From a virus (lineage: Duplodnaviria; Heunggongvirae; Uroviricota; Caudoviricetes), in IMG/VR virus record IMGVR_UViG_2695420523_000022: a DNA stretch of 15,244 nt; one strand, written 5' to 3'. Position 1 is the stretch's first letter; each line of letters starts with the position of its first letter. The notes under the pieces are model-generated. The model had not been told where the DNA came from and made no database searches. It saw only the letters and a program-made list of their open reading frames with translations. Shown piece by piece: positions 1 through 14,026 of this stretch. The position numbers and the translations under genes are program-made.

Positions 1-165
1 ATGGCAAAGCCGATCATCACGCTCAATGGCCTAAAAATCGTCATTATGTTGGGAATGCTGGTCATTATTCTCTGCGGTATCCGTTTTGCCGCCGAGATCA
101 TCGTGCCGTTTATTCTCGCATTATTTATTGCTGTTATATATAACTTATTTCACATAATACGTTGA
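1..165 (+). pseudogene. tqsA: 5' fragment of a tqsA-like (AI-2 exporter, PerM/YdgG family) membrane protein gene, truncated by insertion of the element
   Basis: ATG at 1; translation [45 protein letters not shown] is a hydrophobic transmembrane N-terminus I recognise from memory as the TqsA/YdgG start. The frame then runs into AT-rich sequence and stops at 163-165 after 54 codons. Confidence 0.55.
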
Positions 166-211
166 TTTAATTAAATAATTTTCACCGCAAAAAGTGCCAA
201 AAATCGCAAAA

Positions 212-233
212 TGACTACACCAGTGACTACACC
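212..233. repeat. Direct repeat TGACTACACC x2 (212-221 and 224-233) close to the insertion junction; candidate integrase arm-type sites
   Basis: Two exact 10-bp copies with 12-bp start-to-start spacing, about 70 bp from the junction. Confidence 0.3.
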
Positions 234-250
234 GTTCGGTGCACTGTATG

Positions 251-280
251 AAACAACGTGGAACAAATAGACACAAGAAA
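251..280 (+). promoter_or_regulatory. Array of 10-bp-phased GAACAA-like pentamers (aAACAAcgtg gAACAAatag acACAAgaaa); candidate binding array
   Basis: The same 15-mer AACAACGTGGAACAA occurs at 7754-7768; unit and cgtg spacer also match the array at 13931-13980 on the other strand. Confidence 0.45.
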
Positions 281-495
281 TATACAGGCGGATCATCTTT
301 CCAGGGGGAAGCGCACCAATTCATGAGGGGCGTTAATGTCGATATGGGGATCCCCACCTACCGGAATTTTTTTCCGGTTAAACGTTAATCAGGCTGGTGG
401 GCTTTACCTGTTCGGTAGGTGTTATGATTATCGTAATACCTTTCCCCCAATGGGGTAAAAGCATCAACCGTAACGAAAGTCGTTATGGTTGCCAC

Positions 496-570
496 TGATA
501 CCCCAAATTTGGGTATCACGAGTAAGACCCAAAATCTGGGTGTTACTCTTACTACCCAAACTACGGGTAG
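496..570. repeat. Three palindromic sites of the form ACCC-N7-GGGT centred at 507, 534 and 561, exactly 27 bp apart
   Basis: TGATACCCCAAATTTGGGTATCA (496-518), ACCCAAAATCTGGGT (527-541), TACCCAAACTACGGGTA (553-569); the second is nested in a 7-bp outer stem AGTAAGA/TCTTACT. Confidence 0.5.
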
Positions 571-589
571 TTTCCGTAGTTTCATGGTC

Positions 590-609
590 GAGTTGCAGAT
601 CTGCAACTC
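590..609. repeat. 20-bp perfect palindrome GAGTTGCAGATCTGCAACTC
   Basis: Exact reverse-complement symmetry; no adjacent T-run on either strand, so not a canonical terminator. Confidence 0.5.
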
Positions 610-901
610 CCCCATTAACCACAGGCGAATTTCCGCCTTCGGTCATTCCTTAATCATCTGCGTAATCATAATGATTATTCAGCAAGCGCAATTTTGCGCT
701 TTGCTTAAAGTTCAGCGAGTTACCGCGCCGACTTCCTCAAATTGAGGTTTCCGAAATATCAGCGGGTTAGCGATTAAGCTGTTCATTAATTAAACTGCGA
801 AAATTTCGTAGTTTGTGACTGTCTTTCAGGCAGCTTGTTAACAGTCCTCAGAAGCGAGGGATGTAGCCACCCATTTTTGGTCCGTCGGGAATATCAACCA
901 G

Positions 902-1183
902 TTACCGCCGCAACCGCTCCGGCTTCTTCCAGTGGTACGTTATTTTCTCCTTCTCCCGATACATCTCCACGCGGCGACGGTAGGCCAGCAACTCAAGAAC
1001 TCTGGTTCGTATGTTGCGCATATCCACGCCATTAAGTTCTATACCATCACGGCGCATCACCTCAGCAACAACACGCGCATAGTTTTCGGCTGTCACGCTG
1101 TCCGGCTGCGTGGCCTGTTCGTCAGCCTGCTGGCTGATTCCGGCAACGCGGCGGATTAATCCCGTTATTTCGGCTTCTGTCAT
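902..1183 (-). CDS. Hypothetical protein (93 aa) co-transcribed downstream of terL
   Basis: ATG at 1183 preceded by GAGGT with 7-nt spacing, 13 nt after the terL stop; charged, non-repetitive translation; no family recognised. Confidence 0.45.
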   Translation of the reverse strand: MTEAEITGLIRRVAGISQQADEQATQPDSVTAENYARVVAEVMRRDGIELNGVDMRNIRTRVLELLAYRRRVEMYREKEKITYHWKKPERLRR

Positions 1184-1196
1184 GCTGCTGACCTCA

Positions 1197-2858
1197 TTAC
1201 ACCCCGCTAAATTCTTCCAGTTTCTGGCGGTGGCTGTCGCTTATATCAAAAGCAAAATCCTCATGCTCTGCCTGGAATGTACCAAACGCCATCAGCGCCG
1301 CCACGCTCGGGTCTATCTTGTTCGGTGATTTTTTCTTGTTCGGCTTGATATTGGCGTTCGCGTCACTCTGCATCACGACGTTACTCATCGACCAGGACAA
1401 CACCGGATCGCCACGATGCACAATCACCCTGCGGTTAACAAAAACTTCGAACGATTTCGCCGCCGGACTGAATCTGAGGTAGGTTTGCGGGAACGGCTCC
1501 ACCTCAAAACCTGCCCCCTGTAATTGCGTTCTGAGATGCGTGGCGTTCCACGTATCAAAGCCCACCAGCCTGATATTAAATTTCTCCGCGTCCTGCATGA
1601 TGTCATCTCTGATCCGGTCGTAATCAATGCAGTCGCCAGGCGTTGTGCGTATCCAGCCTGCTTTAGCCCACTGACGATAGATGGCGCGGTTTTTATTGGC
1701 GGGGTTCTGTAGCTGGAACTCCGGCAGATAATGACGGGAAACCAGCATAATGGTTTTACCGACCGGAAAGGCATAGCACACGCTGGAAATATCGCTTGTG
1801 GATGATAAATCCAGCCCCGCGTAACACTCCTGGCCGTGTAAATCTTCCTCCGTGAACGTTCCGGCACACTCAGCCCATGCGCCGTTACCCATCCACGGGG
1901 TAGTCCCCTGACACCAGATATTAAATCGCTTTGTCATCATCTCCACCCACTGCGACGGAATACCCCGCGCTTTCTGGATGGTTGAGGCCAGTTTTTCACG
2001 ATCCACGGAAACATCAATATTAGGGTTCGCCTTTATCCACATCGCCGGATCATCAACCTCGTTTTCGTCGTCCAGTTCGTAAATCAGTACAAAAATTGAA
2101 TCGTTGACCTCTTCGCCGTCCAGGATCTGGCAGCAATAATCATAGTGCTGCTTACAGGCTGAAACGACGTTACTGCCTGATGTGGTAATAGCAAATAACA
2201 GCCCTTCGGGACGTGCGCCCATCCCCAGCTCAAGCGCGGAATAAACGCCGTTATCGGGGTGCAAGTGGTATTCGTCCACGATGGCAAGACTCGGGTTTGT
2301 ACCTTCAATGGTTGCCGCTTTTGCTGCCAGCGGCTTTAACAGGCTGTTGCTTTTCGGGTGTATCACCTTATGCGCCTGAATATTCACCCGCCTGCGTAAC
2401 GGTCGGGATAAAAGGCACATCTGACGCGCATCATCAAAGACGATCCGCGCCTGGTCACGGCTCACCGCTGCGGTGTAAATATCCTGCTGACCGTTCTCCA
2501 TAATCAGAAACCAGTCAGCCAGAATCGCGGCGGTCGTGGATTTCGCATTTTTGCGCGGCACTTCGATAAAGGCGCTCGTGTATTTGCGCCGTCCGGTGGC
2601 CTTAACCTTAAAGCCGAGGATGCACGCAAAGGCGAACTGCTGCCACGGCTCCAGCTCAATGGGTCTGCCACGCATCGGCCCTTTTACGTGCGGGCACACC
2701 CTTGAAAAGGCAATAAACCGCTCCACAACCTCACGATCGAACGTGTAAAGGGGGCTTTTAAGGTCCGAAAAGTACCGTTTAACAGCCTGTTTTAACCGTT
2801 TACAGGCCGGAATTTTGCCCGTTTTTACGTCTTCTGCGTACTTATTCCAGGCGGTCAA
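1197..2858 (-). CDS. terL: Terminase large subunit (553 aa)
   Basis: Size and translation typical of a phage terminase ATPase/nuclease large subunit; TTG start at 2858 with strong SD (AAGAGGA, 5-nt spacer) and no in-frame ATG nearby; overlaps terS by 17 nt. Confidence 0.85.
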   Translation of the reverse strand: MTAWNKYAEDVKTGKIPACKRLKQAVKRYFSDLKSPLYTFDREVVERFIAFSRVCPHVKGPMRGRPIELEPWQQFAFACILGFKVKATGRRKYTSAFIEVPRKNAKSTTAAILADWFLIMENGQQDIYTAAVSRDQARIVFDDARQMCLLSRPLRRRVNIQAHKVIHPKSNSLLKPLAAKAATIEGTNPSLAIVDEYHLHPDNGVYSALELGMGARPEGLLFAITTSGSNVVSACKQHYDYCCQILDGEEVNDSIFVLIYELDDENEVDDPAMWIKANPNIDVSVDREKLASTIQKARGIPSQWVEMMTKRFNIWCQGTTPWMGNGAWAECAGTFTEEDLHGQECYAGLDLSSTSDISSVCYAFPVGKTIMLVSRHYLPEFQLQNPANKNRAIYRQWAKAGWIRTTPGDCIDYDRIRDDIMQDAEKFNIRLVGFDTWNATHLRTQLQGAGFEVEPFPQTYLRFSPAAKSFEVFVNRRVIVHRGDPVLSWSMSNVVMQSDANANIKPNKKKSPNKIDPSVAALMAFGTFQAEHEDFAFDISDSHRQKLEEFSGV

Positions 2859-3198
2859 GCTCGTCCTCTTCTTCTGTTTCCGGTGGATTTTTACGGCGGC
2901 TTACCGGGTCAAAACCGAGCAAGGAGGCCATTTTTATCATCACTCTTTCAGCGTCGGATTTTGCGCTTAATGCGGGGTTTCTGCTCTCGCCGCCCTGACT
3001 GTTAACAATGCTGAACCCGCGTGCCGCAAGGTCTGCGACGGCTTTCCGGTATATCGAGTAATTGACGCAATACAGTTCCAGATTACTCCAGTCGGCGGGG
3101 GTAAGGTCTCCCCGTTCCGCAAGCTGCCGCGATTTTTCCCGCCACTGCTTCACGGCGATATCATCCAGGTAGGCGGGGGCTTTCGGTGGTCTTGCCAT
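2842..3198 (-). CDS. terS: Terminase small subunit, P27 family (118 aa)
   Basis: N-terminus MARPPKAPAYLDD and overall composition match the P27-family small terminase as I recall it; immediately upstream of terL. Confidence 0.75.
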   Translation of the reverse strand: MARPPKAPAYLDDIAVKQWREKSRQLAERGDLTPADWSNLELYCVNYSIYRKAVADLAARGFSIVNSQGGESRNPALSAKSDAERVMIKMASLLGFDPVSRRKNPPETEEEDELDRLE

Positions 3199-3321
3199 GC
3201 TTATTTTTTCGCCAGATTATTTTTCAAAAAATTCCCGTGCATAAAAATTTGAGGAGGCGTTCGGTGCCCGGCGGGGTCGGGTTTGTCCTGAAAACGCCCC
3301 CCACCCCGTCATACAGCCTCA

Positions 3322-3504
3322 TCAGCGATTGCGGAAACATTCCATAACCTCGCGGTCACGGTCGGTTAATCGCTTCGCTGTGATGCGTTCTGCGCGTCCT
3401 GACGCTTTATCTTTATGCCCTGTTTCCTGTGTCTTCCATGCGTCACGCTGCCTTATAAGTCCACGGATAAGGCGTTTTTGTTCCCGCTCATTCATCAGCG
3501 TCAT
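3322..3504 (-). CDS. Possible small basic protein (60 aa) between HNH and terS; uncertain
   Basis: ATG at 3504 gives MTLMNEREQKRLIRGLIRQRDAWK, overlapping the HNH stop by 17 nt; weak SD; could be a spurious frame. Confidence 0.25.
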   Translation of the reverse strand: MTLMNEREQKRLIRGLIRQRDAWKTQETGHKDKASGRAERITAKRLTDRDREVMECFRNR

Positions 3505-3928
3505 ACATCCAGTTATTGCGGTTAGCGGCCCGTTCTTCCTCTTCACGAAATCCACCTGCGGCACGCTTGCTTTTTGTTGCTGGATCAAGCCACTTCGTTT
3601 TCTGGTTATGACACGCCTGGCACAATGGCTGATGGTTCCATTCGGGCCAGAAGAGAACATCATCACCGCCATTAATCGGGATAATGTGATCCACCACCAC
3701 GGCGGGCGTATATATCCCCTTCTCAAGGCATCGCACGCATAACGGGTTTTTACTCAGATACATGGCGCGGTATTTTTCCCACTGTCTGGAGTACCCACGC
3801 GCGCGGCGGTGTCCTCGTCTGGCATCCTCTGCACGCCATGCCGCCCGCCTGTGCTCCTCACACTTGCCGGACTTAACGCGCCTGTTACAGCCTGGTTCTG
3901 TACATCGTCTTAATGGTTGCCACGGCAT
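3488..3928 (-). CDS. HNH endonuclease (146 aa), packaging-associated
   Basis: Cys pairs (CTEPGC, CEEH, CVRC, CQACH) plus DHIIP and NHQPLC motifs typical of HNH; placed directly before terS/terL as in HK97-like phages; ATG overlaps the connector stop. Confidence 0.8.
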   Translation of the reverse strand: MPWQPLRRCTEPGCNRRVKSGKCEEHRRAAWRAEDARRGHRRARGYSRQWEKYRAMYLSKNPLCVRCLEKGIYTPAVVVDHIIPINGGDDVLFWPEWNHQPLCQACHNQKTKWLDPATKSKRAAGGFREEEERAANRNNWMYDADE

Positions 3929-4224
3929 CAGTACACCCCCACATCACGGTAAGCCGTCCAGAGCGCGCCAATCGTCATGGGTACGCGCGTTTTTGCGTTA
4001 TCCGCTACCAGCTGGCGATTCTCGTACAGGTGAGCGATAAACATCATGCAGCCAATCTTTATGGCTGGCGTGAACTCCAGCCCGTCATCAAAGCGCCTGC
4101 CTATATGTATCTGGCACGCCTCAAGCGATGCGGCAATGTATCCGCTGATTAACTGGTCTTCCTCGTCGCCATCGATGCGGCAATGGAGTTTCACTTCTTC
4201 CAGGGTGATAAGTTCTTCTGTCAT
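3928..4224 (-). CDS. Head-tail connector protein, gp6-like (98 aa)
   Basis: MTEELITLEEVKLHCRIDGDEEDQLISGYIAAS matches the gp6-like connector N-terminal pattern; position between head closure and HNH. Confidence 0.65.
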   Translation of the reverse strand: MTEELITLEEVKLHCRIDGDEEDQLISGYIAASLEACQIHIGRRFDDGLEFTPAIKIGCMMFIAHLYENRQLVADNAKTRVPMTIGALWTAYRDVGVY

Positions 4225-4559
4225 TTTTCCGCGCCCTCACGACAAAGAATTTCAAGGCGTGTCCTGGCGGCATCCGGCAGCGGTTGCCCGATGATATTCA
4301 GTACACGCCCCGCCAGCGGCCCCGTATTGACCTTTATCCGGCTGGTGGCGTTGATGTCCTTCCGGTACCGTATCCAGATCCTTACGGTACCAATCGCCAG
4401 CTCTGCACCCGATGAAATGGCCTCCTTGCTGCTGATCATGTTCACGCTTGCCCAGAGTGTGTGACCGTCCTCCCACGTTTCGAGTATTTCGCCGGTTATA
4501 TCCCTGGTCTGTTTCAGGGTCTGAATCGTTACCCTGTCACGCAGTCGCCCTATGTTCAT
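4221..4559 (-). CDS. Head closure / head-tail adaptor protein (112 aa from ATG at 4559)
   Basis: RDRVTIQ...WASV...IRYRKDI...RI pattern typical of the head-tail joining family; ATG at 4559 overlaps the portal stop; the track ORF extends to 4601 but has no better start. Confidence 0.65.
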   Translation of the reverse strand: MNIGRLRDRVTIQTLKQTRDITGEILETWEDGHTLWASVNMISSKEAISSGAELAIGTVRIWIRYRKDINATSRIKVNTGPLAGRVLNIIGQPLPDAARTRLEILCREGAEK

Positions 4560-5767
4560 TCCGGTTTTTCTCCCTCGCTGATTTTTACTTCCTGTTTCCA
4601 TGCCTGGCTGAACTCATCACCACCATCACGCGGGGACAGCCCTTCACGTTCGCGGGCTTCGTTCGGGCACATAACGCCGGATTTGATGCCGCGTTCATAG
4701 GTGGCAAAGCGTTCGCCAGGTGTGGCCCGTAACAGGTCCGCGCTGTCAAACTCCACCTGATACCGGATACCAGGTACAGGCGAGGCCACCAGCAGGGCGT
4801 TTTTTATCTGCTGCTCAAAGTTCGCCAGCCACGGGCGCATTGTCATGGTGAGAAATGCGCGGCTTGCCTCGCTGAAATTGCTGTAGGTGCTGTTGCTGTA
4901 TTCCTGCAGAAAAATCGGCGAGACGTTGAACATTCGGGCGATGTCTTCAATGGTGAAGCGACGGGAGGCCAGCCATTCAGCATCCTGATTACTCATGCCC
5001 AGCTGCTGATAGCTCATACCCCCTTCAAGAATGGGCGTTTTTCCGGCGTTTCTGGCTCCTTTGTAGCGTTCCAGTGCGGCTAATGCCTGTTTGCCCTTCA
5101 CGCCGTCCAGCCATTCGCCTGACGTGATAACCCCTGCCGCCATCATGCCATCACGCATCACGCTCGCGCCGTGGCGTTGTTGGGCCAGCCCAAGCCCCAG
5201 CGATTCGCGGCAGATGGTTACAGGTGAGCGCCCCATAAAACCGTCATCCGTGGAGTAACGAAGGTGGAGAACCTCCCACGGTAAATAGTTGCGGGTGTTT
5301 CCGGTGTAGGCGTCAGTGATGCAGTAGCGCCAGTTATGCTCACCTGTCTGCTCAACGTTCACCGACTGCGGCGGGTAAGGATGTAAAGCCACCGGAAAAC
5401 CATCACGCCCCCACTGAATCACCGCATAAGCATTACCGTTTAACAGGCAGTGGCGGATCATCATTCGCTTAAACTGGTAGGGAGTCTGCCACGCGTTCGG
5501 GCGCTCGTTGAGGATGTGATCGACCGGATGAGAATCAAGCCACTCGCGGGCCTCCTTCCCCTTCTCATTGCGTACCAGGTACAGGTAACACGGCATGGTA
5601 GCCACCGCCTCAGAGATGACCGTCACGGCGTTCATGACGGCGGGCAGTGATTCCGCTGTCCCCGATGATACGTACTCACCCGCCCCCGTGTTCGATGTGC
5701 CAGCCAGCGCCATAAATTCATCAAGCGTCATGCTGCGCTGCTCTTTTTTTCTTCTGAAAAGCCACAT
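4556..5767 (-). CDS. Portal protein, HK97 family (403 aa)
   Basis: Size, composition and position between prohead protease and head closure; ATG at 5767 is 1 nt after the protease stop. Confidence 0.8.
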   Translation of the reverse strand: MWLFRRKKEQRSMTLDEFMALAGTSNTGAGEYVSSGTAESLPAVMNAVTVISEAVATMPCYLYLVRNEKGKEAREWLDSHPVDHILNERPNAWQTPYQFKRMMIRHCLLNGNAYAVIQWGRDGFPVALHPYPPQSVNVEQTGEHNWRYCITDAYTGNTRNYLPWEVLHLRYSTDDGFMGRSPVTICRESLGLGLAQQRHGASVMRDGMMAAGVITSGEWLDGVKGKQALAALERYKGARNAGKTPILEGGMSYQQLGMSNQDAEWLASRRFTIEDIARMFNVSPIFLQEYSNSTYSNFSEASRAFLTMTMRPWLANFEQQIKNALLVASPVPGIRYQVEFDSADLLRATPGERFATYERGIKSGVMCPNEAREREGLSPRDGGDEFSQAWKQEVKISEGEKPE

Positions 5768-5768
5768 A

Positions 5769-6341
5769 TCACACCCCCGCTAAATCCACCCACCAGCGGC
5801 GATTATCCGCACGCGGCATTTTTTCTGGGTGCTGCTCATACAGGGAACGGCGGGCCAGCTCCACGCCGGAATCGGGGTAAGCCGGTACCGATGTAACGGT
5901 AATTTCGTACAGTTCCGCCACCAGCACGGTGCGCACGCATGGATCTGTTGTGGTATCCCATACATCCTTACGGGAGCGAAAGCCAAAGCTCATCCCCGAG
6001 ATGTCCCCACGCTTAACCAGTTCGATAACGTCGCGCCCTGTACTGGTATCCGGTGGGGTCAGTTCAAAGCGTAACCCTGTTTCGTCCTCTTCCAGTTTCA
6101 GCGTGCCGGAACGGGTACGCCCCAGCAACATGCTGTGGTCATGCTCATACAGGCCGCGAACGTCATTACCCACCGCAAGCCATTCAGTAAACGCTCCCCG
6201 CTGGAATTTTTCGTAAAACTCCCCCCATAGCAGCTCTGAAAGCTTATCCCAGCGAACAACGTAGCCTGTAAGCGTGTTGCTGGCGCTGGTGGTGATTTCC
6301 GATGACCGGATTTCCATACTCTTCATAATTTTTTCACCCAT
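5769..6341 (-). CDS. Prohead maturation protease, HK97 family (about 185-190 aa)
   Basis: Translation typical of the HK97 prohead protease; lies between capsid and portal; start ambiguous among ATGs at 6341, 6326 and 6317. Confidence 0.75.
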   Translation of the reverse strand: MGEKIMKSMEIRSSEITTSASNTLTGYVVRWDKLSELLWGEFYEKFQRGAFTEWLAVGNDVRGLYEHDHSMLLGRTRSGTLKLEEDETGLRFELTPPDTSTGRDVIELVKRGDISGMSFGFRSRKDVWDTTTDPCVRTVLVAELYEITVTSVPAYPDSGVELARRSLYEQHPEKMPRADNRRWWVDLAGV

Positions 6342-6370
6342 AAAACACTAAAGGGGCTTTTAAGCCCCTT
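6342..6370 (-). terminator. GC-rich hairpin plus U-rich tract between the capsid and protease genes; probable partial terminator or attenuator
   Basis: Minus strand reads AAGGGGCTT-AA-AAGCCCCTT followed by TAGTGTTTTATG, 10 nt after the capsid stop. Confidence 0.5.
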
Positions 6371-6380
6371 CTGTATGCTG

Positions 6381-7538
6381 TTAATCGTCGTCCTGTGGCA
6401 GTTCCAGAATCTTGATCGCGTTCGAATCCACCACGCCACCGCCTAAATATTTCTGCGTGAAAATTTTGATGAAGCCCGGCTCTGTGAGGTTGTCCGGTCT
6501 GGTGCGAACACCTGTTTCGTGATCAACAATGTAGTAACCGCGTTTGAAGTCACCCAGGGCAATAACGTTATCAGGCATAAACTCCAGATATTCGACCGGA
6601 AGGCCCAGCAACGTATCAGGATCACCCGCCTGTAAACGGTCGCGCCAGATGTAATCACCGTTCGCGTTCTTCACCTTCTGAAGTTTTGCCGCCGTCGTGG
6701 AGTTAACCACCCAGACCGCGTTTTTGCGGTATTTTTTACGTAATGCAAATTTCAGGTCGATCAGCGGGTCAGCAGATGTCCACGCCAGAGATTCGGAAGG
6801 TTTAATTACCTGTAACGTACCAAAATCACGCTCTTTGTCGTTCTTCTCTGCACGGGGTACGGATAAAAAGCCTTTTGCTTTTTTGTCACCGTCGCCCACA
6901 ACCAGATCGCTTTCTTCGGTTTCCGTGAAGGTGTCGCCAATCTCACCCGTCAGCCATGAAAGGATGTCCACATCGGAAAAATCCACGATTTCCTGTGTGG
7001 TGCGCGGGTACGCATAGACCGGATACAGCTTAATGCTCACCTCGTTAATCTGCGGGGTGCTGGTCTGTTCGCGTGTCTTACCCTCTTCACCGTGGTTAAC
7101 GGTCGCACCGCCAGCGGAAACAAGCTGCTTAAACTCGTTGCTGCTGATTTTCTTCACGGTACAGATGCGGCGCATGGTGGATTCATCCGTCAGCATTCGC
7201 ATGATTTCGGTGTTCAGTTCGGGGATAACGGTATAACCACCATCAGCGGGAACGCCTGTACTTAATGCGCGGGTTTCACCTGTCAGGATGTAGTTGCGGA
7301 GTTCTGCCGGGTCAGTGGTCTGGCTGCTTTTACCTGGCTTGCTGCGCTCTTCGTCTGCAATGGCTTCAAGGCGGGAAATGTCTTTATCGAGGGATTCAGC
7401 TTTAGCGCGTAATTCGTCAAATTTTGCGCCCTCAGCATCGTTAAGACTGCGGTTTTCTTTTTCCGCGTTCTCCAGCATGTCGCGCATCTGATTTTTAATG
7501 GCGGTTTTCTGCTGGCGTAATTCGATTATTCTCGGCAT
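6381..7538 (-). CDS. Major capsid protein, HK97 fold (385 aa) with N-terminal coiled-coil delta/scaffold domain
   Basis: N-terminal 100 aa are charged and helical (ELRQQKTAIKNQMRDMLENAEKENR...), as in HK97-type capsid delta domains; C-terminal part resembles HK97-family capsids; followed by protease and portal. Confidence 0.85.
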   Translation of the reverse strand: MPRIIELRQQKTAIKNQMRDMLENAEKENRSLNDAEGAKFDELRAKAESLDKDISRLEAIADEERSKPGKSSQTTDPAELRNYILTGETRALSTGVPADGGYTVIPELNTEIMRMLTDESTMRRICTVKKISSNEFKQLVSAGGATVNHGEEGKTREQTSTPQINEVSIKLYPVYAYPRTTQEIVDFSDVDILSWLTGEIGDTFTETEESDLVVGDGDKKAKGFLSVPRAEKNDKERDFGTLQVIKPSESLAWTSADPLIDLKFALRKKYRKNAVWVVNSTTAAKLQKVKNANGDYIWRDRLQAGDPDTLLGLPVEYLEFMPDNVIALGDFKRGYYIVDHETGVRTRPDNLTEPGFIKIFTQKYLGGGVVDSNAIKILELPQDDD

Positions 7539-7575
7539 AAAAAAAGTCCTGGGGTTAAGTAAGGAACTCCAGGAC
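7539..7575 (-). promoter_or_regulatory. Terminator-like hairpin with U7 tract directly abutting the capsid ATG; stem contains the only SD-like AGGA
   Basis: Minus strand: GTCCTGGAGTT-CCTTACTT-AACCCCAGGAC-TTTTTTT-ATG (stem 7 bp + mismatch + 3 bp). Confidence 0.5.
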
Positions 7576-7752
7576 GCGGCAAAAACTCAACCGTTTTTCA
7601 TAAGGAAATCAGCAATCGCACCGATCGTTTTCCCGCCTGGTAATGAATATTGGCGAGAACATTAACAGGCGGAAAAGTGGCCCCAGCGTCCTGGCACCAC
7701 GGGCGAGAATAATCATGATTCAGTTCGGGTAAAATATGCCGATCCTGTCAGT

Positions 7753-7782
7753 GAACAACGTGGAACAACCACGAACAAATAA
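7753..7782 (+). promoter_or_regulatory. Three GAACAA pentamers at exact 10-bp phasing (gAACAAcgtg gAACAAccac gAACAAataa), about 215 bp upstream of the capsid start
   Basis: Direct reading; shares the 15-mer AACAACGTGGAACAA with 252-266 and the unit with 13931-13980. Confidence 0.5.
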
Positions 7783-7790
7783 TTTACAAA

Positions 7791-7819
7791 AAATGACAAA
7801 AAGCCGGATTGCTCCGGCT
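7791..7819 (-). terminator. Rho-independent terminator after the 74-aa ORF
   Basis: Minus strand: GCCGGAGCAATCCGGC followed by TTTTTGTCATTTTTT, 11 nt after the stop at 7830. Confidence 0.75.
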
Positions 7820-7829
7820 GTATGCGTGC

Positions 7830-8054
7830 TCAGTCCCTGATCCCTTTCAGAAATTCTATCAATGCATCTATCTGTTCAGGATTTACCGCCAGCATTTCAC
7901 CGGACAGAGCACATCTCACAAAACCATGCTGATCCTTTTCAATCAGTGCGCCCGTCTCCAGGAATGCGCGGTAATCATTGATGCTCATCGTCTCCATGTT
8001 GTCAGCATGGTATTTATCACGCTGTTTTAATATCTCATCAAATTTCATCGGCAT
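7830..8054 (-). CDS. Hypothetical protein (74 aa), moron-like with its own terminator
   Basis: ATG at 8054 (MPMKFDEILKQRDKYHADN...) with SD AGAGGA at 7-nt spacing; flanked by terminators on both sides. Confidence 0.5.
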   Translation of the reverse strand: MPMKFDEILKQRDKYHADNMETMSINDYRAFLETGALIEKDQHGFVRCALSGEMLAVNPEQIDALIEFLKGIRD

Positions 8055-8149
8055 TGTTTTTTCCTCTGTTGTGTCTGTTTGTTTCAGATAGTAACTATGC
8101 CTGACCGTGACGAAAACCCGGTAATGCGCCATACCGTTTCAACTGGTGC

Positions 8150-8173
8150 AAAAAAAGCCGGATTTCTCCGGCT
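8150..8173 (-). terminator. Rho-independent terminator after the PerC-like gene
   Basis: Minus strand: AGCCGGAGAAATCCGGCT followed by TTTTTTT, 5 nt after the stop at 8179; near-identical to the 7791-7819 terminator. Confidence 0.8.
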
Positions 8174-8178
8174 GTTGA

Positions 8179-8451
8179 TTAGCTGTCTGGGTAATTACGC
8201 CATATTTCATCGCTTACACCATCTATACCCATTTCAGCATAAGTGCGATCTACTGCCTTTCTCAGGTCTCCGAAGTTATCCGGCGGCTCCGGTGGCTTCT
8301 GTGCCTTCCTGGAACATTCCAGCCGTCGCATCGTAACCTGATGCCGTTCCTTGTCTGTCTCCACCAGCAGCATGACTTCACCCCATCGCGCCGCCGCCCT
8401 CCGGTAAAAGCCTTTCGCCTCGAGTTCTTCCGCTATGCGGTCATGTACCAT
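8179..8451 (-). CDS. PerC-family-like small transcriptional regulator (90 aa); family assignment tentative
   Basis: ATG at 8451 with SD GAGGGGG at 5-nt spacing; motif AEELEAKGFYRRAAARWGEVM resembles the PerC/Pch motif as I recall it; the track ORF from 8571 lacks a credible start. Confidence 0.45.
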   Translation of the reverse strand: MVHDRIAEELEAKGFYRRAAARWGEVMLLVETDKERHQVTMRRLECSRKAQKPPEPPDNFGDLRKAVDRTYAEMGIDGVSDEIWRNYPDS

Positions 8452-8461
8452 CGCCACCCCC

Positions 8462-8872
8462 TCAGAACGGAATACCGTCACCGTAAGGGTCATCGCCTCC
8501 CGCTGGTGGCTGATTACCCTGTGTGCCTGTGGTTTTGCGTCTGTTCCCGCCAGGACGTGCCGCACGGACACTGATTACGCTGTCTGCAATAACCTGATAA
8601 CCCTGCCGCGTTTCCCCGTTCTGTCCGGTCCACTGGCTGACCTGCATCGTGCCGGATACGCTGGCAACGTCGCCTTTTTGATGTTTAGCCAGGAAGTCGG
8701 CCTGCTTACCAAATGCGATGACCGATAGCCATAACGTCGCCTGCCCATCCTGCGCCTGACTACATGGCAACGATACCGCCATACGCGCCAGCGTCATCGG
8801 TGTGCCCTTACTGGTCTGTTTTACCTGCGGGTCGTCCACCAGCCGCCCGTAAGCCGCTATCTGTGCTGTCAT
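8462..8872 (-). CDS. ssb: Single-stranded DNA-binding protein (136 aa)
   Basis: OB-fold-like N-terminus, Gly/Gln-rich linker and acidic C-terminal tail ending DDPYGDGIPF, the canonical SSB tail type; ATG overlaps the upstream stop. Confidence 0.75.
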   Translation of the reverse strand: MTAQIAAYGRLVDDPQVKQTSKGTPMTLARMAVSLPCSQAQDGQATLWLSVIAFGKQADFLAKHQKGDVASVSGTMQVSQWTGQNGETRQGYQVIADSVISVRAARPGGNRRKTTGTQGNQPPAGGDDPYGDGIPF

Positions 8873-9120
8873 GATTCCACCTCTCCGGTTTTAACGTTGA
8901 TGGTTGTTACCTGTTCTGCTTCTGCGATCTCCCGTTCTGTCAGCGTGGCAAAGTTTGCCGCTGCTGTGGTCATGAATGCGCTTATCAGGTCGGGATGTTC
9001 CTTCGCGTATCCTTCCCGCGTGTGGCGGTCTATCGTTCTGATTGCCACCTTTAAGGTGTGCTCAGTCATGTCTAACGCTTTATATTTTGGCTCTGTTCTG
9101 TCTCTGCGTTTTTGGGTCAT
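8869..9120 (-). CDS. Hypothetical protein (83 aa) between the origin and ssb
   Basis: ATG at 9120 (MTQKRRDRTEPKYK...); stop overlaps the ssb ATG; no family recognised. Confidence 0.4.
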   Translation of the reverse strand: MTQKRRDRTEPKYKALDMTEHTLKVAIRTIDRHTREGYAKEHPDLISAFMTTAAANFATLTEREIAEAEQVTTINVKTGEVES

Positions 9121-9131
9121 TTCTCGCAACC

Positions 9132-9323
9132 TCTCACTTTTTCGCCTCACTTTTTCAAGCGTCTCACTTCGTCGCAGTTGGGATTTTCGGTTTTTCTATG
9201 TGTGTGTTTCATAAGTATTTTTTTACCCCTCACTTTTGAGGATGTATACAGGTCGAAAAGTGAGGGAGAGCGGGCTAATTTTGGCCCTCTTTCTATCCCC
9301 CTCGCTTTTGCTCCTCACTTTTA
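9132..9323. repeat. Iteron-type replication origin: at least 5 direct copies and 1 inverted copy of CCTCACTTTT around an AT-rich tract
   Basis: CTCACTT at 9133, 9146, 9163, 9229, 9314; inverted copy AAAAGTGAGG at 9257-9266; degenerate CTCGCTT at 9301; AT-rich 9181-9228; lies directly 3' of the replication gene. Confidence 0.65.
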
Positions 9324-10721
9324 TAGCGGCGCTACATCATCCCCATCGATACGAATAACCCCATCTTTTTCCAGCTTGTACAGCCAGCGCCGGAAGTTTT
9401 TCATTTCATACCCCAGCTTTTTCATGTCATCACGTAACAGCGGGATCGTGCACTTGTCGCCGTTCTGTGTGCGTGAACGGATGCACCCCCATAGCGCGGT
9501 ATGGTTTTCCGTCTTGTTCCCTGCCTCCTCGATGCGCTCCAGTTCAACAGGAGGGCGCGGATCATCCACCACCACCAGCGACGTGATTAATTCACCGTCA
9601 GCGTCGGTAAAAAGCTCCACCACGCGTAAGTCATATGCGGCTTCTTTGAGTTCCTCCGCGTCCTTCATTTTGGTGCATGAGATAACCAGCGCTTCGCTTC
9701 CTGCGTCCTCCCTGCGTATCCGGTATTCAGCATCCAGCGAAGCACGAAATGCACTGGAACCGCGCGCGCCTTTCGTCTCATCCTTGCCGGAATGGTGAAC
9801 CACCAGCACCGTGGCCCCTGTGCGTCGTTTCAGTTCGTCACAACCACGGATAAACGCCCCCATATCACGGGAATCATTTTCATCATTCCCACCAAAGCAA
9901 CGCGCCAGCGTATCCAGAATAATCATGCGTACAGGTTTACCCGTTTCCCGCTCCACCTGACGGGCAGCGATAACCATTTCATCAACATCAAGCGGGGCAG
10001 CCGGAAAGATGGGGCGGTTTACCAGATACAGATTTTTCACCTGCTCATCGTGCACAACCTCCCAGGCTTTTACACGACGCGGAACACCTATACCGCCTTC
10101 ACCAACCACATAGAGAACCGCACCATGTGCAACCCTGCGGCCTCCCCACTGGCGACCAGTGGCAACATGGCACGCCCACGATCCGGCAAGGAATGATTTA
10201 TAGGACCCGCTAGCCCCGTATATGCTGCATAGCGATACCGCCGGAATAATCCCCTTAACCACGTAATCCAGTTGCGTGTCGTATCCGGTAGATCCAACGC
10301 TCATCGGTAGCGTGGTTTTTCGCTGGTGGTTTTTTTCTTCCACCGGCTCTTTCCCGCGCACCCGTTCCAGGTATTCGCGCCAGTTCTCCCGCATATGGCT
10401 GTGCATCCCTTCGGGGTAATAATTCGCATCAGTTACACCCGCCGCCGCCAGCTTGTGCGCAATGGCATTAATATTTGATGGCCTGATGTGGCCTGCCTTG
10501 TACAGCCGGACACAATAGCGCCCCTCGTCGATGATTCTCAGGTCTGCCAGTTCATCCAGTTGATCATCAGCCAGCACAACGGGAGGCACATTATCGCCAG
10601 CCAGTCGCCCGTCCTGTTCCTGCCACTGTTTCGCATGTGCCCACGCATCACTACCCGCAAAAATGATGACTTCGGTCATCTTGTCGTAAGGCTGTTTTTT
10701 TAAGTTCGGTGCGCTTTTCAT
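9321..10721 (-). CDS. Replication initiator / RepA-like RecA-fold ATPase, the satellite pri-rep equivalent (466 aa)
   Basis: Walker A-like GASGSYKS, downstream hydrophobic strand then D (MIILDTLARCFGG) and VLVVHHSGKD, typical of RepA/AAA_25-type replicative ATPases; iterons immediately downstream. Confidence 0.7.
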   Translation of the reverse strand: MKSAPNLKKQPYDKMTEVIIFAGSDAWAHAKQWQEQDGRLAGDNVPPVVLADDQLDELADLRIIDEGRYCVRLYKAGHIRPSNINAIAHKLAAAGVTDANYYPEGMHSHMRENWREYLERVRGKEPVEEKNHQRKTTLPMSVGSTGYDTQLDYVVKGIIPAVSLCSIYGASGSYKSFLAGSWACHVATGRQWGGRRVAHGAVLYVVGEGGIGVPRRVKAWEVVHDEQVKNLYLVNRPIFPAAPLDVDEMVIAARQVERETGKPVRMIILDTLARCFGGNDENDSRDMGAFIRGCDELKRRTGATVLVVHHSGKDETKGARGSSAFRASLDAEYRIRREDAGSEALVISCTKMKDAEELKEAAYDLRVVELFTDADGELITSLVVVDDPRPPVELERIEEAGNKTENHTALWGCIRSRTQNGDKCTIPLLRDDMKKLGYEMKNFRRWLYKLEKDGVIRIDGDDVAPL

Positions 10722-11017
10722 TTCTTGCCCCTGAATACGTTAAGCATCTTTTTTATTTCCTGAATATTGGCGCGTGCTTTCTCCCTGCTGGTTGGTTTAC
10801 TGCGGGGCGCTGCCTGTACCAGAGAAAAATCACGCCGGAACTGATAAACAGGCATCACGCAGTCATATTCGTAGCCTTCACGGCGGTAGGTAATGCGTCG
10901 CTCTTCTACACCTTTAATCGTTACGGTGCCGCCGTACTGGTCGCGGTAAATATCGCCGCGCGTAAATTTAGGGTGAGTGTTGCCACTGGCAGTTAAGCCA
11001 GAATATTTAAGTTTCAT
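10718..11017 (-). CDS. Hypothetical protein (99 aa), translationally coupled to the replication gene
   Basis: ATG at 11017 with SD GGAGAA; stop overlaps the downstream ATG (ATGA). Confidence 0.5.
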   Translation of the reverse strand: MKLKYSGLTASGNTHPKFTRGDIYRDQYGGTVTIKGVEERRITYRREGYEYDCVMPVYQFRRDFSLVQAAPRSKPTSREKARANIQEIKKMLNVFRGKK

Positions 11018-11022
11018 TATTT

Positions 11023-11256
11023 TTATTCTCCGGTGTGCTGTTCTTTATATCTGTCGTGCAATATATCTATTTCTTGCAGTTCCATTATTACAGGCTCAAG
11101 AAGCGTTATTAATGCCGTGGCAATTCTTGATTTTTGTTTGTCGCGTTCATTGTCGCCAAGTGTTTCAAGCCATATGCGTAATATTTCCAGCATGTTTTCA
11201 CTGTGAGAAAGTGCAAGAAATGCGCGGTCTATTGTTTCAAGGTAAATATCACGCAT
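11023..11256 (-). CDS. Hypothetical protein (77 aa)
   Basis: ATG at 11256, 1 nt after the upstream stop; MRDIYLETIDRAFLALSHSENMLEILRIWLETLGDNERD; no family recognised. Confidence 0.45.
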   Translation of the reverse strand: MRDIYLETIDRAFLALSHSENMLEILRIWLETLGDNERDKQKSRIATALITLLEPVIMELQEIDILHDRYKEQHTGE

Positions 11257-11257
11257 A

Positions 11258-11836
11258 TTAATCCCCGTCCGTCGTTTTTCTTAAAATAACCTCTGTCACG
11301 AAATCAGCATAATCGGCGACGATATTCAGTACATCAAGCCCCGTTGATTTATATTCTCTCGTGGAAAGTAAGAAAAAAGCCGCTCTAATAAGCTCTGGCA
11401 TTGACGAAAGCGCATCAGCCGCATCATCAGGAACGCCGGAAAATTCCTGTTTCAGGGAATTAAAACGATCATCACGCATGTTTACCCCCTGAATGACCTG
11501 ATAACCGCAACTGGTCAACAACTCGATAAATTCCGGCAGTGTGCCGAAACAGCAATCATCACGCAGCCGTTCGCAGGATACCTCGACGCCGTTTTCGTAG
11601 TGACTCACCATACATCCGGTAAAATGCAGATCATCATCGTGATGGCTCGTTGACGGCTTAATCAGTCGCGCACGTTCCGCCAGTTCCAGCAATGCTTCAA
11701 CGCTTCCGGCAATTGCACCATCCGGCAGGTGATAATTACGCACTATGCGCCCGTTCTCCACATTGACCAGCAACTGCCCGGTAAATTTCTCGTCAAACTG
11801 AATGCTGTTAAGGTCAGAAATTGACAGGTTATGCAT
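11258..11836 (-). CDS. Hypothetical protein (192 aa), largest unknown in the accessory operon
   Basis: ATG at 11836 (MHNLSISDL...) with strong SD AGGAGG at 6-nt spacing; the track start at 11854 has no SD; no motif recognised. Confidence 0.55.
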   Translation of the reverse strand: MHNLSISDLNSIQFDEKFTGQLLVNVENGRIVRNYHLPDGAIAGSVEALLELAERARLIKPSTSHHDDDLHFTGCMVSHYENGVEVSCERLRDDCCFGTLPEFIELLTSCGYQVIQGVNMRDDRFNSLKQEFSGVPDDAADALSSMPELIRAAFFLLSTREYKSTGLDVLNIVADYADFVTEVILRKTTDGD

Positions 11837-12053
11837 GGTGCACCTCCTGCACATCAGCCATGATAATTTTTCCGGCCTTATCCAGTGCCTGATCGGCTTT
11901 TAGCTGCACAAATGTTAAATAATGGAAGATGCATTCTGATTCTCTGGCTGCGTGTTTATGCGCCCTGTCAGCAATAACAGAAATATCAATAAGCGCGTGC
12001 ATCAGCGTAGTGAGCGCGGCGGCGGCTGCGTCCGGTGTGGTTTTATTGCACAT
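11829..12053 (-). CDS. Hypothetical protein (74 aa)
   Basis: ATG at 12053 with SD GGAGGGG; overlaps the upstream gene by 11 nt and the downstream start by 8 nt. Confidence 0.45.
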   Translation of the reverse strand: MCNKTTPDAAAAALTTLMHALIDISVIADRAHKHAARESECIFHYLTFVQLKADQALDKAGKIIMADVQEVHHA

Positions 12054-12273
12054 GTACCCCTCCGCATTTTTTTTCGTTAGAAATAAGCGTTCTTCTTTCC
12101 TGTTCATCGCTCAGGAATACGCAGACCTCACCGCTAAGGCGTTTAAGTAAGCCGATGATTGCCCCTGATTCGCTGTCGGTCATCATGCCAGGGTAATCCT
12201 CTGCCAGTGCGCAAATAACTTCGATTTGGTGGGCGCGTTCTGCTGCCTGTTGTAGTGTGATTTCCTGGCTCAT
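12043..12273 (-). CDS. Hypothetical protein (76 aa)
   Basis: ATG at 12273 overlapping the upstream stop (ATGA); SD AGGGGG 8 nt upstream. Confidence 0.45.
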   Translation of the reverse strand: MSQEITLQQAAERAHQIEVICALAEDYPGMMTDSESGAIIGLLKRLSGEVCVFLSDEQERRTLISNEKKCGGVHVQ

Positions 12274-12470
12274 AAGCCTACCCCCTGACGAATACGGGCA
12301 GCAAATACCATCACGCAGCCAGCCGGAGATTGCTGGCGTGCTTCCTGTTCGCTGGTGGCCTCAATGGTAATCACGCGCGGTTGTGCCGTGCTCAGGGCGA
12401 TAAAACGCCAGATGTATTTATTCAGGTTGTGCGAGTCCCGCCCTTGCGGGTGTATGGTATAATTTCTCAT
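12270..12470 (-). CDS. Small protein (66 aa), first gene of the leftward operon; possibly Icd-like (P4-type host cell division inhibitor family), tentative
   Basis: ATG at 12470 with SD GAGG at 5-nt spacing; MRNYTIHPQGRD...IWRFIALSTAQPRVITIEATSEQEARQQSPAGCVMVFAARIRQG resembles Icd-like satellite proteins as I recall them. Confidence 0.4.
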   Translation of the reverse strand: MRNYTIHPQGRDSHNLNKYIWRFIALSTAQPRVITIEATSEQEARQQSPAGCVMVFAARIRQGVGL

Positions 12471-12567
12471 AGCTGCCTCGATACTGTTGCTATCGTTGGT
12501 GGTTAGACGCCCTGCATGTGTTGCGAGCACTGCGGGGCGTTGCTTAATTTGAGTAACAAAACTCAAA

Positions 12568-12648
12568 CTGTGCGCACAGATTAAAATCATGTGTGCGCAC
12601 ATGTCAATACTTAACATCTCATTTTTTTTACTGTATTGTGTGCGCCCA
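12568..12648. promoter_or_regulatory. Divergent promoter region with three TGTGCGCACA-type operators (12569-12578, 12592-12601, imperfect 12639-12648)
   Basis: Leftward promoter: -35 TTGACA (revcomp of 12602-12607), 16-nt spacer, -10 TTTAAT (revcomp of 12580-12585); one operator fills the spacer, one sits at the predicted start site. Rightward promoter: -35 TTAACA 12611-12616, -10 TATTGT 12634-12639, overlapped by the third operator. Confidence 0.6.
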
Positions 12649-12675
12649 TAAAGTCCATTTAAGTGAGGTGCATCA

Positions 12676-12873
12676 ATGTCTAGCGGTAACAAAAACAACA
12701 AATCAGCAAAGAAAAATATTCGATTCCCACATGAGCTTATAGATGGGATTGATGCCAGCGTTGAACAAGAAAAATTAACTAATCCTAGTGCTAATTTTTC
12801 CGCATGGGTCTTAGATGCCTGTGGACGCAAATTAAAATATGAACAGCGCCGGAAGGCCAAAGAATCAGAATAA
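12676..12873 (+). CDS. YlcI/YnfO-family (DUF3950) small protein, likely ribbon-helix-helix DNA binder (65 aa); candidate island repressor
   Basis: NIRFPHELIDGIDASV...NFSAWVLDACGRKL matches the YlcI pattern (NIRFP...NFSAWVIEACRRRL) as I recall it; SD GTGAGGTG 6 nt upstream; divergent from the operator-bearing promoter. Confidence 0.65.
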   Translation: MSSGNKNNKSAKKNIRFPHELIDGIDASVEQEKLTNPSANFSAWVLDACGRKLKYEQRRKAKESE

Positions 12874-12930
12874 TCACTATCAGCGCCGTGGTGTGAGGAA
12901 CTACGGCGCATTTCTTTACAGGAGTAGACA

Positions 12931-13116
12931 ATGAACAACGAAGAATTACGGGAAATCGCATTATCCATACTTGAAAGACAGGTAGAAAAAAAATTAAGAG
13001 AAATGGATGAAATGCCTGACCATGAACAGGAAGCAAGGCCAAAAAGATTTGCCCTTGAGGATTTTCTTAAAAATTGCCCAAGAAAGATGAGATCGTGGCG
13101 TTGTTGTCCGCCCTGA
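12931..13116 (+). CDS. Hypothetical protein (61 aa) downstream of the ylcI-like gene
   Basis: ATG at 12931 with strong SD AGGAG at 6-nt spacing; MNNEELREIALSILERQVEKKLREMDE... Confidence 0.5.
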   Translation: MNNEELREIALSILERQVEKKLREMDEMPDHEQEARPKRFALEDFLKNCPRKMRSWRCCPP

Positions 13117-13288
13117 TGACAGATTTGCCAACCAGCCAAAAATGTGGCATCGTTGTCGATGCATAGTGTAATCAACATGTATATCATATTTTTGCCTGTA
13201 ATCCGGCAATTGTGGCGCTTCTTCACACAGTTGATATAATTCCAATGCTCATATTTATTTTTTGTGCAGCAGGTTAATCGTTCACAAA

Positions 13289-13318
13289 GGCGCTCAGGTA
13301 ACTGGGCGCTTTTTGTTA
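13289..13318 (+). terminator. Rho-independent terminator between the convergent alpA and ylcI-like transcripts (probably bidirectional)
   Basis: GGCGCTCAG-GTAA-CTGGGCGCT (9-bp stem with two G-U pairs) followed by TTTTTGTT; CCTTTGTG on the other strand. Confidence 0.6.
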
Positions 13319-13463
13319 TGCCTGAAAAACCCCAATTTTGTTGTTTTTCAGTTTCACCAGGGCGAACGAATCCCCGCCCACGTTCTGGCGTATATTCAAT
13401 CTTCATGGTTATAGCTCTGTGTTCAGATGATTGATGTGTGGCGGCTGCGTGCCGCCAGCGTGA

Positions 13464-13652
13464 TTAATGAACTGCCTTGCAGCTATCCTTCCAGGCCAGA
13501 ACCTCGGATAAAGACCAGCCAACGGAACGACCGCCAAGTTTACGACGTGATGGGAATTGTCCGGCCTTTTCCAGGCGGTAGCGGCATGAGCGGCTAAGGC
13601 CTGTTAGCTTTTCGCATTCTTTTTCACGTATAAACCGATCAGTGCTTAACAC
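13464..13652 (-). CDS. alpA: AlpA-family phage regulatory protein / excisionase-like wHTH (62 aa)
   Basis: LTGLSRSCRYRLEKAGQFPSRRKLGGRSVGWSLSEVLAW is the AlpA signature; GTG start at 13652 with SD AAGGGGG at 5-nt spacing. Confidence 0.8.
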   Translation of the reverse strand: MLSTDRFIREKECEKLTGLSRSCRYRLEKAGQFPSRRKLGGRSVGWSLSEVLAWKDSCKAVH

Positions 13653-13930
13653 TATTGCCCCCTTTCGTTTCTTAAAGAGTTATTTCGTGTTCTATTGCGT
13701 TGGGATGTGTCTGATTGTGTCAGGATGATTCAGAGTTGGCAAATGTTGAGGCCGCATGGTTTACAGAAAGAGGAATAATCAGGATAAAATCATTTAAATT
13801 CATGTTAATACAAAGGCATAAAATATTGTTTCATGCCTTTTTTCTCGCTATTTAAAGAGTGATTCGCTAGTGTATAAAAAACCAGTAACACATTAAAAAT
13901 CAGCTACTTATAAATCTGTACACTTTTTCG

Positions 13931-13980
13931 CCTCTTGTTCGTAGTTGTTCCGCATTGTTGCTCATTGTTGCACGTTGTAT
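13931..13980 (-). promoter_or_regulatory. Five tandem 10-bp units each containing TTGTT (GAACAA on the minus strand) between int and alpA
   Basis: cctcTTGTTC gtagTTGTTC cgcaTTGTTG ctcaTTGTTG cacgTTGTAT; same unit and cgtg spacer as the arrays at 251-280 and 7753-7782. Confidence 0.55.
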
Positions 13981-13993
13981 CTGTTCGCATATC

Positions 13994-14009
13994 CAGTATG
14001 CGCATACTG
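13994..14009. promoter_or_regulatory. 16-bp perfect palindrome CAGTATGCGCATACTG, 18 bp beyond the int stop; candidate protein-binding site
   Basis: Exact dyad symmetry; no flanking U-tract on the int strand, so not a canonical terminator. Confidence 0.4.
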
Positions 14010-14026
14010 AAAAAATACGAAAAAAA

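Follow-up and report, generated by a model that had tools for sequence, protein, structure and literature searches.

The window analysed here, a stretch of 15,244 nucleotides, very probably comprises attL and nearly the whole body of a 15.3-kb capsid-forming PICI (cf-PICI) of the EcCIEDL933 type, which Int integrated at codons 43-46 of the Escherichia coli gene tqsA, leaving the gene likely off until the element excises. On this reading a phage satellite interrupts, and likely shuts down, a conserved transporter gene of quorum sensing in about 1 in 20 of the E. coli that have been sequenced, many STEC lineages among them.

The left end of the window and the tqsA gene

Positions 1-137 (plus strand) of the window are identical at all 137 nucleotides to tqsA of E. 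coli K-12 MG1655 (b1601, annotated as 'autoinducer 2 exporter'), the first mismatch being nucleotide 138. This 5' fragment covers codons 1-45 and two bases of codon 46, and encodes helix H1 together with the first half of H2. The original prediction, made from the letters of this DNA, held that a 54-codon truncated ORF derives from the 5' coding region of tqsA, and this was borne out. The ORF at 1-165 (plus strand) begins with ATG, its residues 1-46 (ending in LFIAVI) are identical to K-12 TqsA through Ile46, and eight element-encoded residues (YNLFHIIR) and a stop codon follow, in agreement to within one codon with the predicted stretch of about 45 TqsA codons. The frame also enters AT-rich element sequence before it stops, as had been proposed, the GC fraction being 0.32 at 138-240 compared with 0.44 at 1-137 and 0.50 for the whole of tqsA. 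Of 5426 complete E. coli genomes, 5424 matched the 5' part of the query at their tqsA locus, and in relatives the same fragment is labelled by RefSeq as a pseudogene ('pheromone autoinducer 2 transporter, incomplete, missing C-terminus'). Because of this match and this transporter annotation, we take the ORF at 1-165 not to be a chance ORF.

No Rfam family reached its gathering score anywhere in the window and ARAGORN detected no tRNA or tmRNA, which rules out an RNA gene as the integration target. Insertion inside a protein gene had been regarded as unusual; it is indeed less common than insertion at tRNA or 3'-end targets, but it forms an established class (Bobay 2013, Mageeney 2020).

Attachment sites and the predicted attP

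Alignment to the uninterrupted tqsA locus placed the attL core at 129-137 (plus strand). It is a 9-bp identity block, TGCTGTTAT, which is present once in the window and is the only block common to attB, attL and attR, so strand exchange would have to fall within it. The attB site lies in tqsA codons 43-46 and reads ...TTATTTAT-TGCTGTTAT-TCTTAAC.... The right flank was read not from the window but from contigs identical to it over 7.2 kb, the closest complete E. coli genome being 99.5% identical over 97%. Two such contigs (L006 and L008), which are 100% identical to window positions 8027-15244, carry a second copy of the core at 188-196 nt past the window end, within attR (...CACTAAATGATAAAA-TGCTGTTAT-TCTTAACCCGCTGGTG...), and this copy is followed by tqsA from codon 47 onward, pntB and pntA. 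The flank beyond position 15244 therefore holds both the rest of tqsA and the repeated core that had been anticipated there. The remainder of the gene begins about 190 nt past the window end in each examined contig with exactly this integrase, and in all six loci shown that encode it, an AI-2E_transport ORF and then pntB, pntA and ydgH lie directly upstream of int. The element body runs on for a further 187 nt outside the window before it reaches the attR core, giving a unit of 15,303 bp including one copy of the core. When window positions 1-137 are joined to the L006 flank, the result is a 344-codon ORF in agreement with K-12 tqsA at 1034 of its 1035 nt, so precise excision would restore the gene.

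On the element side, the core is followed by 24 bp (138-161, plus strand) that are specific to the tqsA-targeting variant, homology with a sister element at the phoQ-roxA site beginning at position 162. Two direct copies of TGACTACACC occur at 212-233 (plus strand; two matches compared with 0.06 expected), as putative arm-type integrase sites of the P' arm, and the same repeat pair is also present in the int-side arm past the window end; each arm thus has paired GACTACACC repeats. The sister element carries TGACTACACC/TAACTACACC in its left arm and TAACTACACC twice in its right arm, and these repeats co-vary with the integrase N-terminus. Since both the repeats and the arm-binding N-terminus of the integrase have changed in the sister element, the paired repeats fit a role as arm-type sites, to which the integrase would bind. 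In the locus L009 (GCA_903973675.1) a 12-bp deletion has left the int-side arm with a single GACTACACC repeat, although the integrase matches that of the window exactly.

A reconstructed 139-nt attP query gave one full-length chromosomal match in E. coli genomes, in EC444 (L012, NZ_CM128674.1), where two complete copies of the island lie in tandem within tqsA (L012 4670-36230). The cores are at L012 4798, 20061 and 35324, a spacing of 15,263 bp per unit, and the middle junction at 20061 (...AAATGATAAAA-TGCTGTTAT-ATATAACTTATTTC...) corresponds to the predicted attP with a single copy of the core. The tandem could be an assembly artefact arising from reads of a replicating concatemer, and such reads would still show attP; whether tandem or concatemer, the junction shows that both ends of the element join through one core. 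As for a free attP, its exact 27-mer had no match in viral or metagenome contigs, and the 139-nt sequence had none in the phage collection. The arrangement as a whole is that of a tyrosine-recombinase element: int abuts the right end, the core recurs in attL, attR and attB, joining of the flanks rebuilds the target, and in EC444 the two ends meet through a single core.

Gene content of the inserted element

Nearly all genes of the element body (138-15244) are on the minus strand. At its right end lies a tyrosine integrase of the P4 type with an N-terminal arm-binding domain (14027-15244, minus strand; Pfam Arm-DNA-bind_3, E 1.5e-18; Phage_integrase, E 2.7e-16). The window ends at an ATG for this gene (15233-15244, giving 405 aa), and RefSeq relatives begin four codons upstream at a GTG (409 aa), so the true start of the integrase may fall outside the window. 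The element also encodes an AlpA-family regulator or excisionase (13464-13652, minus strand; Phage_AlpA, E 5e-18), a replication helicase of the RepA family (9321-10721, minus strand; AAA_25, E 2.4e-43), which RefSeq names 'helicase RepA family protein' in a relative, and a PerC-family transcriptional activator (8179-8571, minus strand; Pfam E 9e-45). The head and packaging module, all on the minus strand, comprises an HK97-fold major capsid protein (6381-7538; PDB 9gyi_B, E 6.9e-257 over 385/385 residues; Pfam Phage_capsid), a prohead protease (5769-6341; Peptidase_S78, E 9.4e-48), a portal protein (4556-5767; Phage_portal, E 9.1e-91), a head closure protein (4221-4601; Phage_HCP, E 4.9e-23), a gp6-like head-tail connector (3928-4224; Phage_connect_1, E 1.9e-11), an HNH endonuclease (3488-3928; HNH, E 1.8e-08), and the small (TerS, 2842-3198; Terminase_4, E 4.1e-24) and large (TerL, 1197-2858; TerL_ATPase and TerL_nuclease) terminases. 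Besides PerC, Pfam matches above threshold in the element included DUF4222 and SSB.

All eleven cf-PICI core functions are therefore present: int, AlpA, helicase, capsid, protease, portal, two connectors, HNH, TerS and TerL. In the definition used by SatelliteFinder (PMC10085698), a cf-PICI has the components shared by PICIs and those specific to cf-PICIs, and tail and holin/lysis functions are 'forbidden'. The element carries the shared set (integrase, AlpA-type regulator, the AAA_25 helicase as primase/replicase, small terminase and capsid gene, as recognised by Pfam) and the specific set (portal, connector, closure, large terminase, HNH and protease, each passing its Pfam cut-off). Neither tail nor lysis genes were found among the ten remaining ORFs, which match PHROGs of unknown function or nothing, nor in the RefSeq annotation of relatives. 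This absence was assessed with Pfam, PHROGs and RefSeq, and the unit of 15,303 bp is well under the size of a phage genome. By its gene content the element is a capsid-forming PICI resembling EcCIEDL933.

Two further features of the body deserve mention. A 378-codon ORF at 12270-13406 (minus strand) with a high content of Ser, Cys and Leu seems to be spurious, because it overlaps plus-strand genes at 12676-12873 (DUF3950/YlcI-YnfO, phrog_949) and 12931-13116 that match known families or have an annotation in relatives, and only its downstream end corresponds to an Icd-like gene annotated in relatives. Positions 440-640 hold five or six strong hairpins in a chain, in which occur the motifs ACCCCAAATTTGGGT, ACCCAAAATCTGGGT and ACCCAAACTACGGGT (RNA-fold z of -9.7 on the minus and -10.3 on the plus strand), which has no Rfam match. 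The chain is kept in O26:H11 11368 and is replaced by unrelated sequence in DETEC-S792 and in the O157:H7 sister element, for which reason we read it as a variable module between the last ORF of the packaging operon and the attL arm; a terminator or insulator block, a small RNA and a protein-binding array are candidates for what it represents.

Occupancy of tqsA and the sister element at phoQ-roxA

The junction int-attR-tqsA occurs in 247 of the 5426 complete E. coli genomes (4.6%), and the site is intact in about 5170, where a 267-bp probe centred on it is continuous. The left 900 bp of the window was found in 188 genomes, and at least 80% of the whole window in 147. Carriers belong to several serotypes and include O26, O103, O55:H7, some O157:H7, and porcine and human isolates. 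Their cargo differs, with replication genes of the RepA, D5_N/DUF5906 or primase type, and int and the att sites are constant. An identical element adjoins two tqsA haplotypes, one differing from K-12 by 1 nt and the other by 19 nt, which points to independent acquisitions of the island at tqsA. The overall pattern is that of repeated site-specific targeting, as opposed to accident or transposition.

A sister cf-PICI, approximately 94-95% identical over about 90% of the window, occupies the phoQ-roxA intergenic region in O157:H7 F6321 (L003) and others, and this site is occupied in 600 of the 5426 genomes. Its integrase shares 91% identity with the one in the window (37 amino-acid differences), most changes being in the N-terminal arm-binding part. 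The sister core is AATATG(T/C)CC, the attL and attR copies differing at one base (L003 3966-4001 and 19535-19560), and in attP the two halves of a perfect inverted repeat, TGATAAAA...TTTTATCA, lie on either side of it. In the tqsA-type attP the left half-site is kept and the right side is different (window positions 129-161 compared), so that the two attP types differ in only about 33 bp, that is, the core and 24-26 bp to its right. Two integrases of 91% identity with different cores, one for tqsA and one for phoQ-roxA, make a convenient natural system for studying a change in att specificity. Both kinds of cf-PICI are integrated in a single chromosome in O103 RM8385 (NZ_CP028112.1), and a search with the integrase among GTDB species representatives gave one locus, of the phoQ-roxA type, in Shigella flexneri.

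Fate of tqsA after insertion

It had been suggested as a caveat that the element might supply a replacement start at its other end, and it does not. At attR an in-frame TAA ends the tqsA frame one codon ahead of the core, both other frames are closed too, and the first in-frame starts of the 3' part, GTG51 and ATG54, both lie inside tqsA and lack an upstream Shine-Dalgarno sequence. A scan of the 800 bp around attR (L002 17700-18500) revealed no sigma-70-like promoter site on either strand, which is a weak negative given that the scan was a crude consensus match and also missed the int promoter, which must lie in the same interval. No homologue of the AI-2E family was present among the 20 largest or annotated ORFs of the island, which rules out replacement of tqsA by an island-borne homologue in the ORFs tested.

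In the TqsA cryo-EM structure, H1 (Thr7-Phe29) makes the major pentamer contact on the cytoplasmic face and H2 (Ala31-Trp57) is membrane-embedded (PMC9475539). Because the break falls at residue 46, H1 and half of H2 stay with the 54-residue peptide, and a product starting at Met54, from which gene callers predict a 291-aa AI-2E_transport ORF, is without H1 and most of H2. RefSeq marks the 3' remnant as a pseudogene. Since the 3' piece receives no start, RBS or promoter from the element and the Met54 product is without these helices, tqsA is very probably off for as long as the island stays in place, and the published structure makes loss of TqsA function likely. The prediction that AI-2 export would be inactivated goes too far, however, because E. 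coli has three TqsA paralogues, YhhT, YdiK and PerM (PMC9475539). In EC444 the 3' remnant of tqsA is annotated with an internal stop, a sign of decay.

A model for integration and excision, and alternative readings

In the mechanism that we favour, a tyrosine integrase of the P4 type recombined attP, made of the core TGCTGTTAT between arms that each hold a pair of GACTACACC repeats, with attB inside tqsA. The 5' piece of the gene retains its promoter and start codon, runs for eight codons into the element and stops, and the 301-codon 3' piece beyond int is left without a start codon, RBS or recognisable promoter from the element. Precise excision mediated by Int and AlpA would rebuild an intact tqsA; that it would occur on induction by a helper phage is taken from published work on EcCIEDL933. 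In EcCIEDL933 and other Gram-negative PICIs, induction and excision need AlpA, whose expression is triggered by the helper phage (10.1101/2022.09.08.507074).

The most serious alternative is that the insertion is a case of regulated gene integrity ('active lysogeny'), in which tqsA is more than a tolerated landing site: the island is kept there, and its reversible excision and re-integration turn AI-2 export, biofilm and motility on and off as a physiological switch. Mageeney et al. (2020, NAR; PMC7192596) scored tqsA islands as ones that disrupt, and do not restore, the UPF0118/AI-2E domain, and placed tqsA among 19 new candidates for regulated gene integrity on the grounds of repeated, position-identical disruption. 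Our observations agree with both features, the target being disrupted and unrestored and the same position having been hit in multiple independent events, and precise excision would restore the gene. The site is occupied in 247 genomes from several serotypes. Moreover, both tqsA fragments remain open and carry hardly any mutations (302/302 aa for L001, 299/302 for L002 and 1034/1035 nt for the rebuilt gene), and deletion of tqsA alters biofilm, motility and intracellular AI-2 (PMC9475539). Intact fragments are, however, equally predicted by recent acquisition, and the EC444 remnant has decayed. The requirement of cf-PICI induction for helper-triggered AlpA (10.1101/2022.09.08.507074) implies that excision is normally coupled to replication, packaging and lysis and not to survival with a restored gene, and no episomal maintenance functions were identified in the element. 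Furthermore, the sister at the harmless phoQ-roxA site is the commoner one (600 vs 247 genomes), so gene disruption is not needed for the success of the family. The helper-coupled biology of cf-PICIs argues against cue-regulated excision with survival of the cell, and because of this life cycle, the commoner sister site and the decayed EC444 remnant we consider such a switch unlikely.

A related proposal is that residence of the cf-PICI in tqsA is itself adaptive. AI-2 would be held inside the cell, lsr expression, biofilm and motility would rise, as they do together with intracellular AI-2 when tqsA is deleted (PMC9475539, citing Herzberg 2006), and low-level or cue-dependent excision would act as a reversible quorum-sensing switch. 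We regard this proposal as quite unlikely, and a weaker variant of it would have the 54-residue H1-H2 peptide, driven by the tqsA promoter, carry an activity of its own.

It is very unlikely that the 3' remnant is expressed from a promoter in the right arm of the element to give a functional transporter of 291-294 aa, with the insertion phenotypically silent. The 3' part does read through as one open frame, with GTG51 and ATG54 in frame, and gene callers predict a 291-aa protein from it, and the int-side arm must hold at least the int promoter region, divergent promoters being common. Even so, the interval around attR gave no sigma-70-like site, codons 51 and 54 are without a Shine-Dalgarno sequence, the product would be without the H1 pentamer contact and nearly all of H2 (PMC9475539), and the remnant is called a pseudogene by RefSeq.

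Finally, an off-target or non-specific event, in which the 9-bp repeat would be a transposon-like target-site duplication or tqsA a secondary site of the phoQ-roxA integrase, is extremely improbable: some transposases do leave 9-bp direct repeats and a 91% identical integrase does use another site, but 247 genomes share one identical junction although their cargo varies, with replication modules of the RepA, D5_N/DUF5906 and primase types, the element encodes Int and AlpA with no transposase family among its Pfam and PHROGs matches, the internal junction of EC444 has exactly one core copy, as expected of attP, and the tqsA-type core and 24-bp flank differ from the phoQ type and match their own target. 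A Mu-like or transposon insertion was rejected in view of the identical junction, the missing transposase match and the single-core EC444 junction.

Integration of a cf-PICI by its integrase, the reading preferred here, does not overturn current understanding, its mechanism being ordinary tyrosine-recombinase integration. For annotation, it means that the 54-codon and 291-codon ORFs belong together as the halves of a single split gene, and it also bears on comparisons of AI-2, biofilm or motility phenotypes between strains.

Comparison with known systems

Splitting of a coding gene by a recombinase, with excision rebuilding it, is known from the Listeria comK phage, the Stx phage in mlrA/yehV and the skin element in sigK of B. 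subtilis (PMC7192596), and the arrangement in tqsA is the same. Regulated excision and an accompanying phenotype were demonstrated there, whereas the tqsA case is known from its sequence arrangement and its occupant is a helper-dependent satellite.

The target site itself has been reported before. Bobay, Rocha and Touchon (2013; PMC3603311) listed tqsA among 15 additional disrupted protein genes; had it not been disrupted, tqsA would count as part of the core genome. The occupants were treated there as prophages and the sites as poorly populated and possibly secondary, in contrast to the satellite described here, which has its own matching core and is present in 4.6% of genomes. The TIGER islands Eco282.16.tqsA, Eco33.11.tqsA and Eco557.15.tqsA (PMC7192596), of 11-16 kb, lie inside E. 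coli tqsA as does the element of the window, and, compared by description, they almost certainly represent the same integrase and att system. That paper does not call them cf-PICIs, a family that was named later. A literature search on ydgG combined with integration site gave no match.

The closest relative in kind is EcCIEDL933, the prototype cf-PICI of O157:H7 EDL933 (Alqurainy et al., 10.1101/2022.09.08.507074; 10.1101/2025.02.11.637232). It is alike in size (about 15.3-15.4 kb) and, like the element of the window, has int, alpA and rep, a full head and packaging module of the HK97 type, and no tail or lysis genes. The family and its prototype were described in 2022-23, and six attB sites for cf-PICIs are known in E. 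coli (10.1101/2022.09.08.507074). The capsid protein of the window shows near-identity to 9gyi, a solved 385-aa 'Major head protein', which we infer to be that of EcCIEDL933 because the cryo-EM structure of the latter's capsid is described in the 2025 preprint (10.1101/2025.02.11.637232). Induction by a helper, formation of own small capsids and use of helper tails have been shown for EcCIEDL933 and a few others (10.1101/2022.09.08.507074, 10.1101/2025.02.11.637232), and the near-identity of the capsid suggests that the same would apply to the element studied here. The O157:H7 relative L003, which aligns with about 90% of the window at approximately 94.6% identity and which presumably corresponds to EcCIEDL933, differs from the element of the window in lying between phoQ and roxA, where it disrupts no gene.

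The target site and the element family have thus already been published, and the arrangement is known in substance. To it the present analysis adds the exact core and attP, the finding that no replacement start is provided, the EC444 tandem, the occupancy of the site and the 33-bp difference from the phoQ-type attP.
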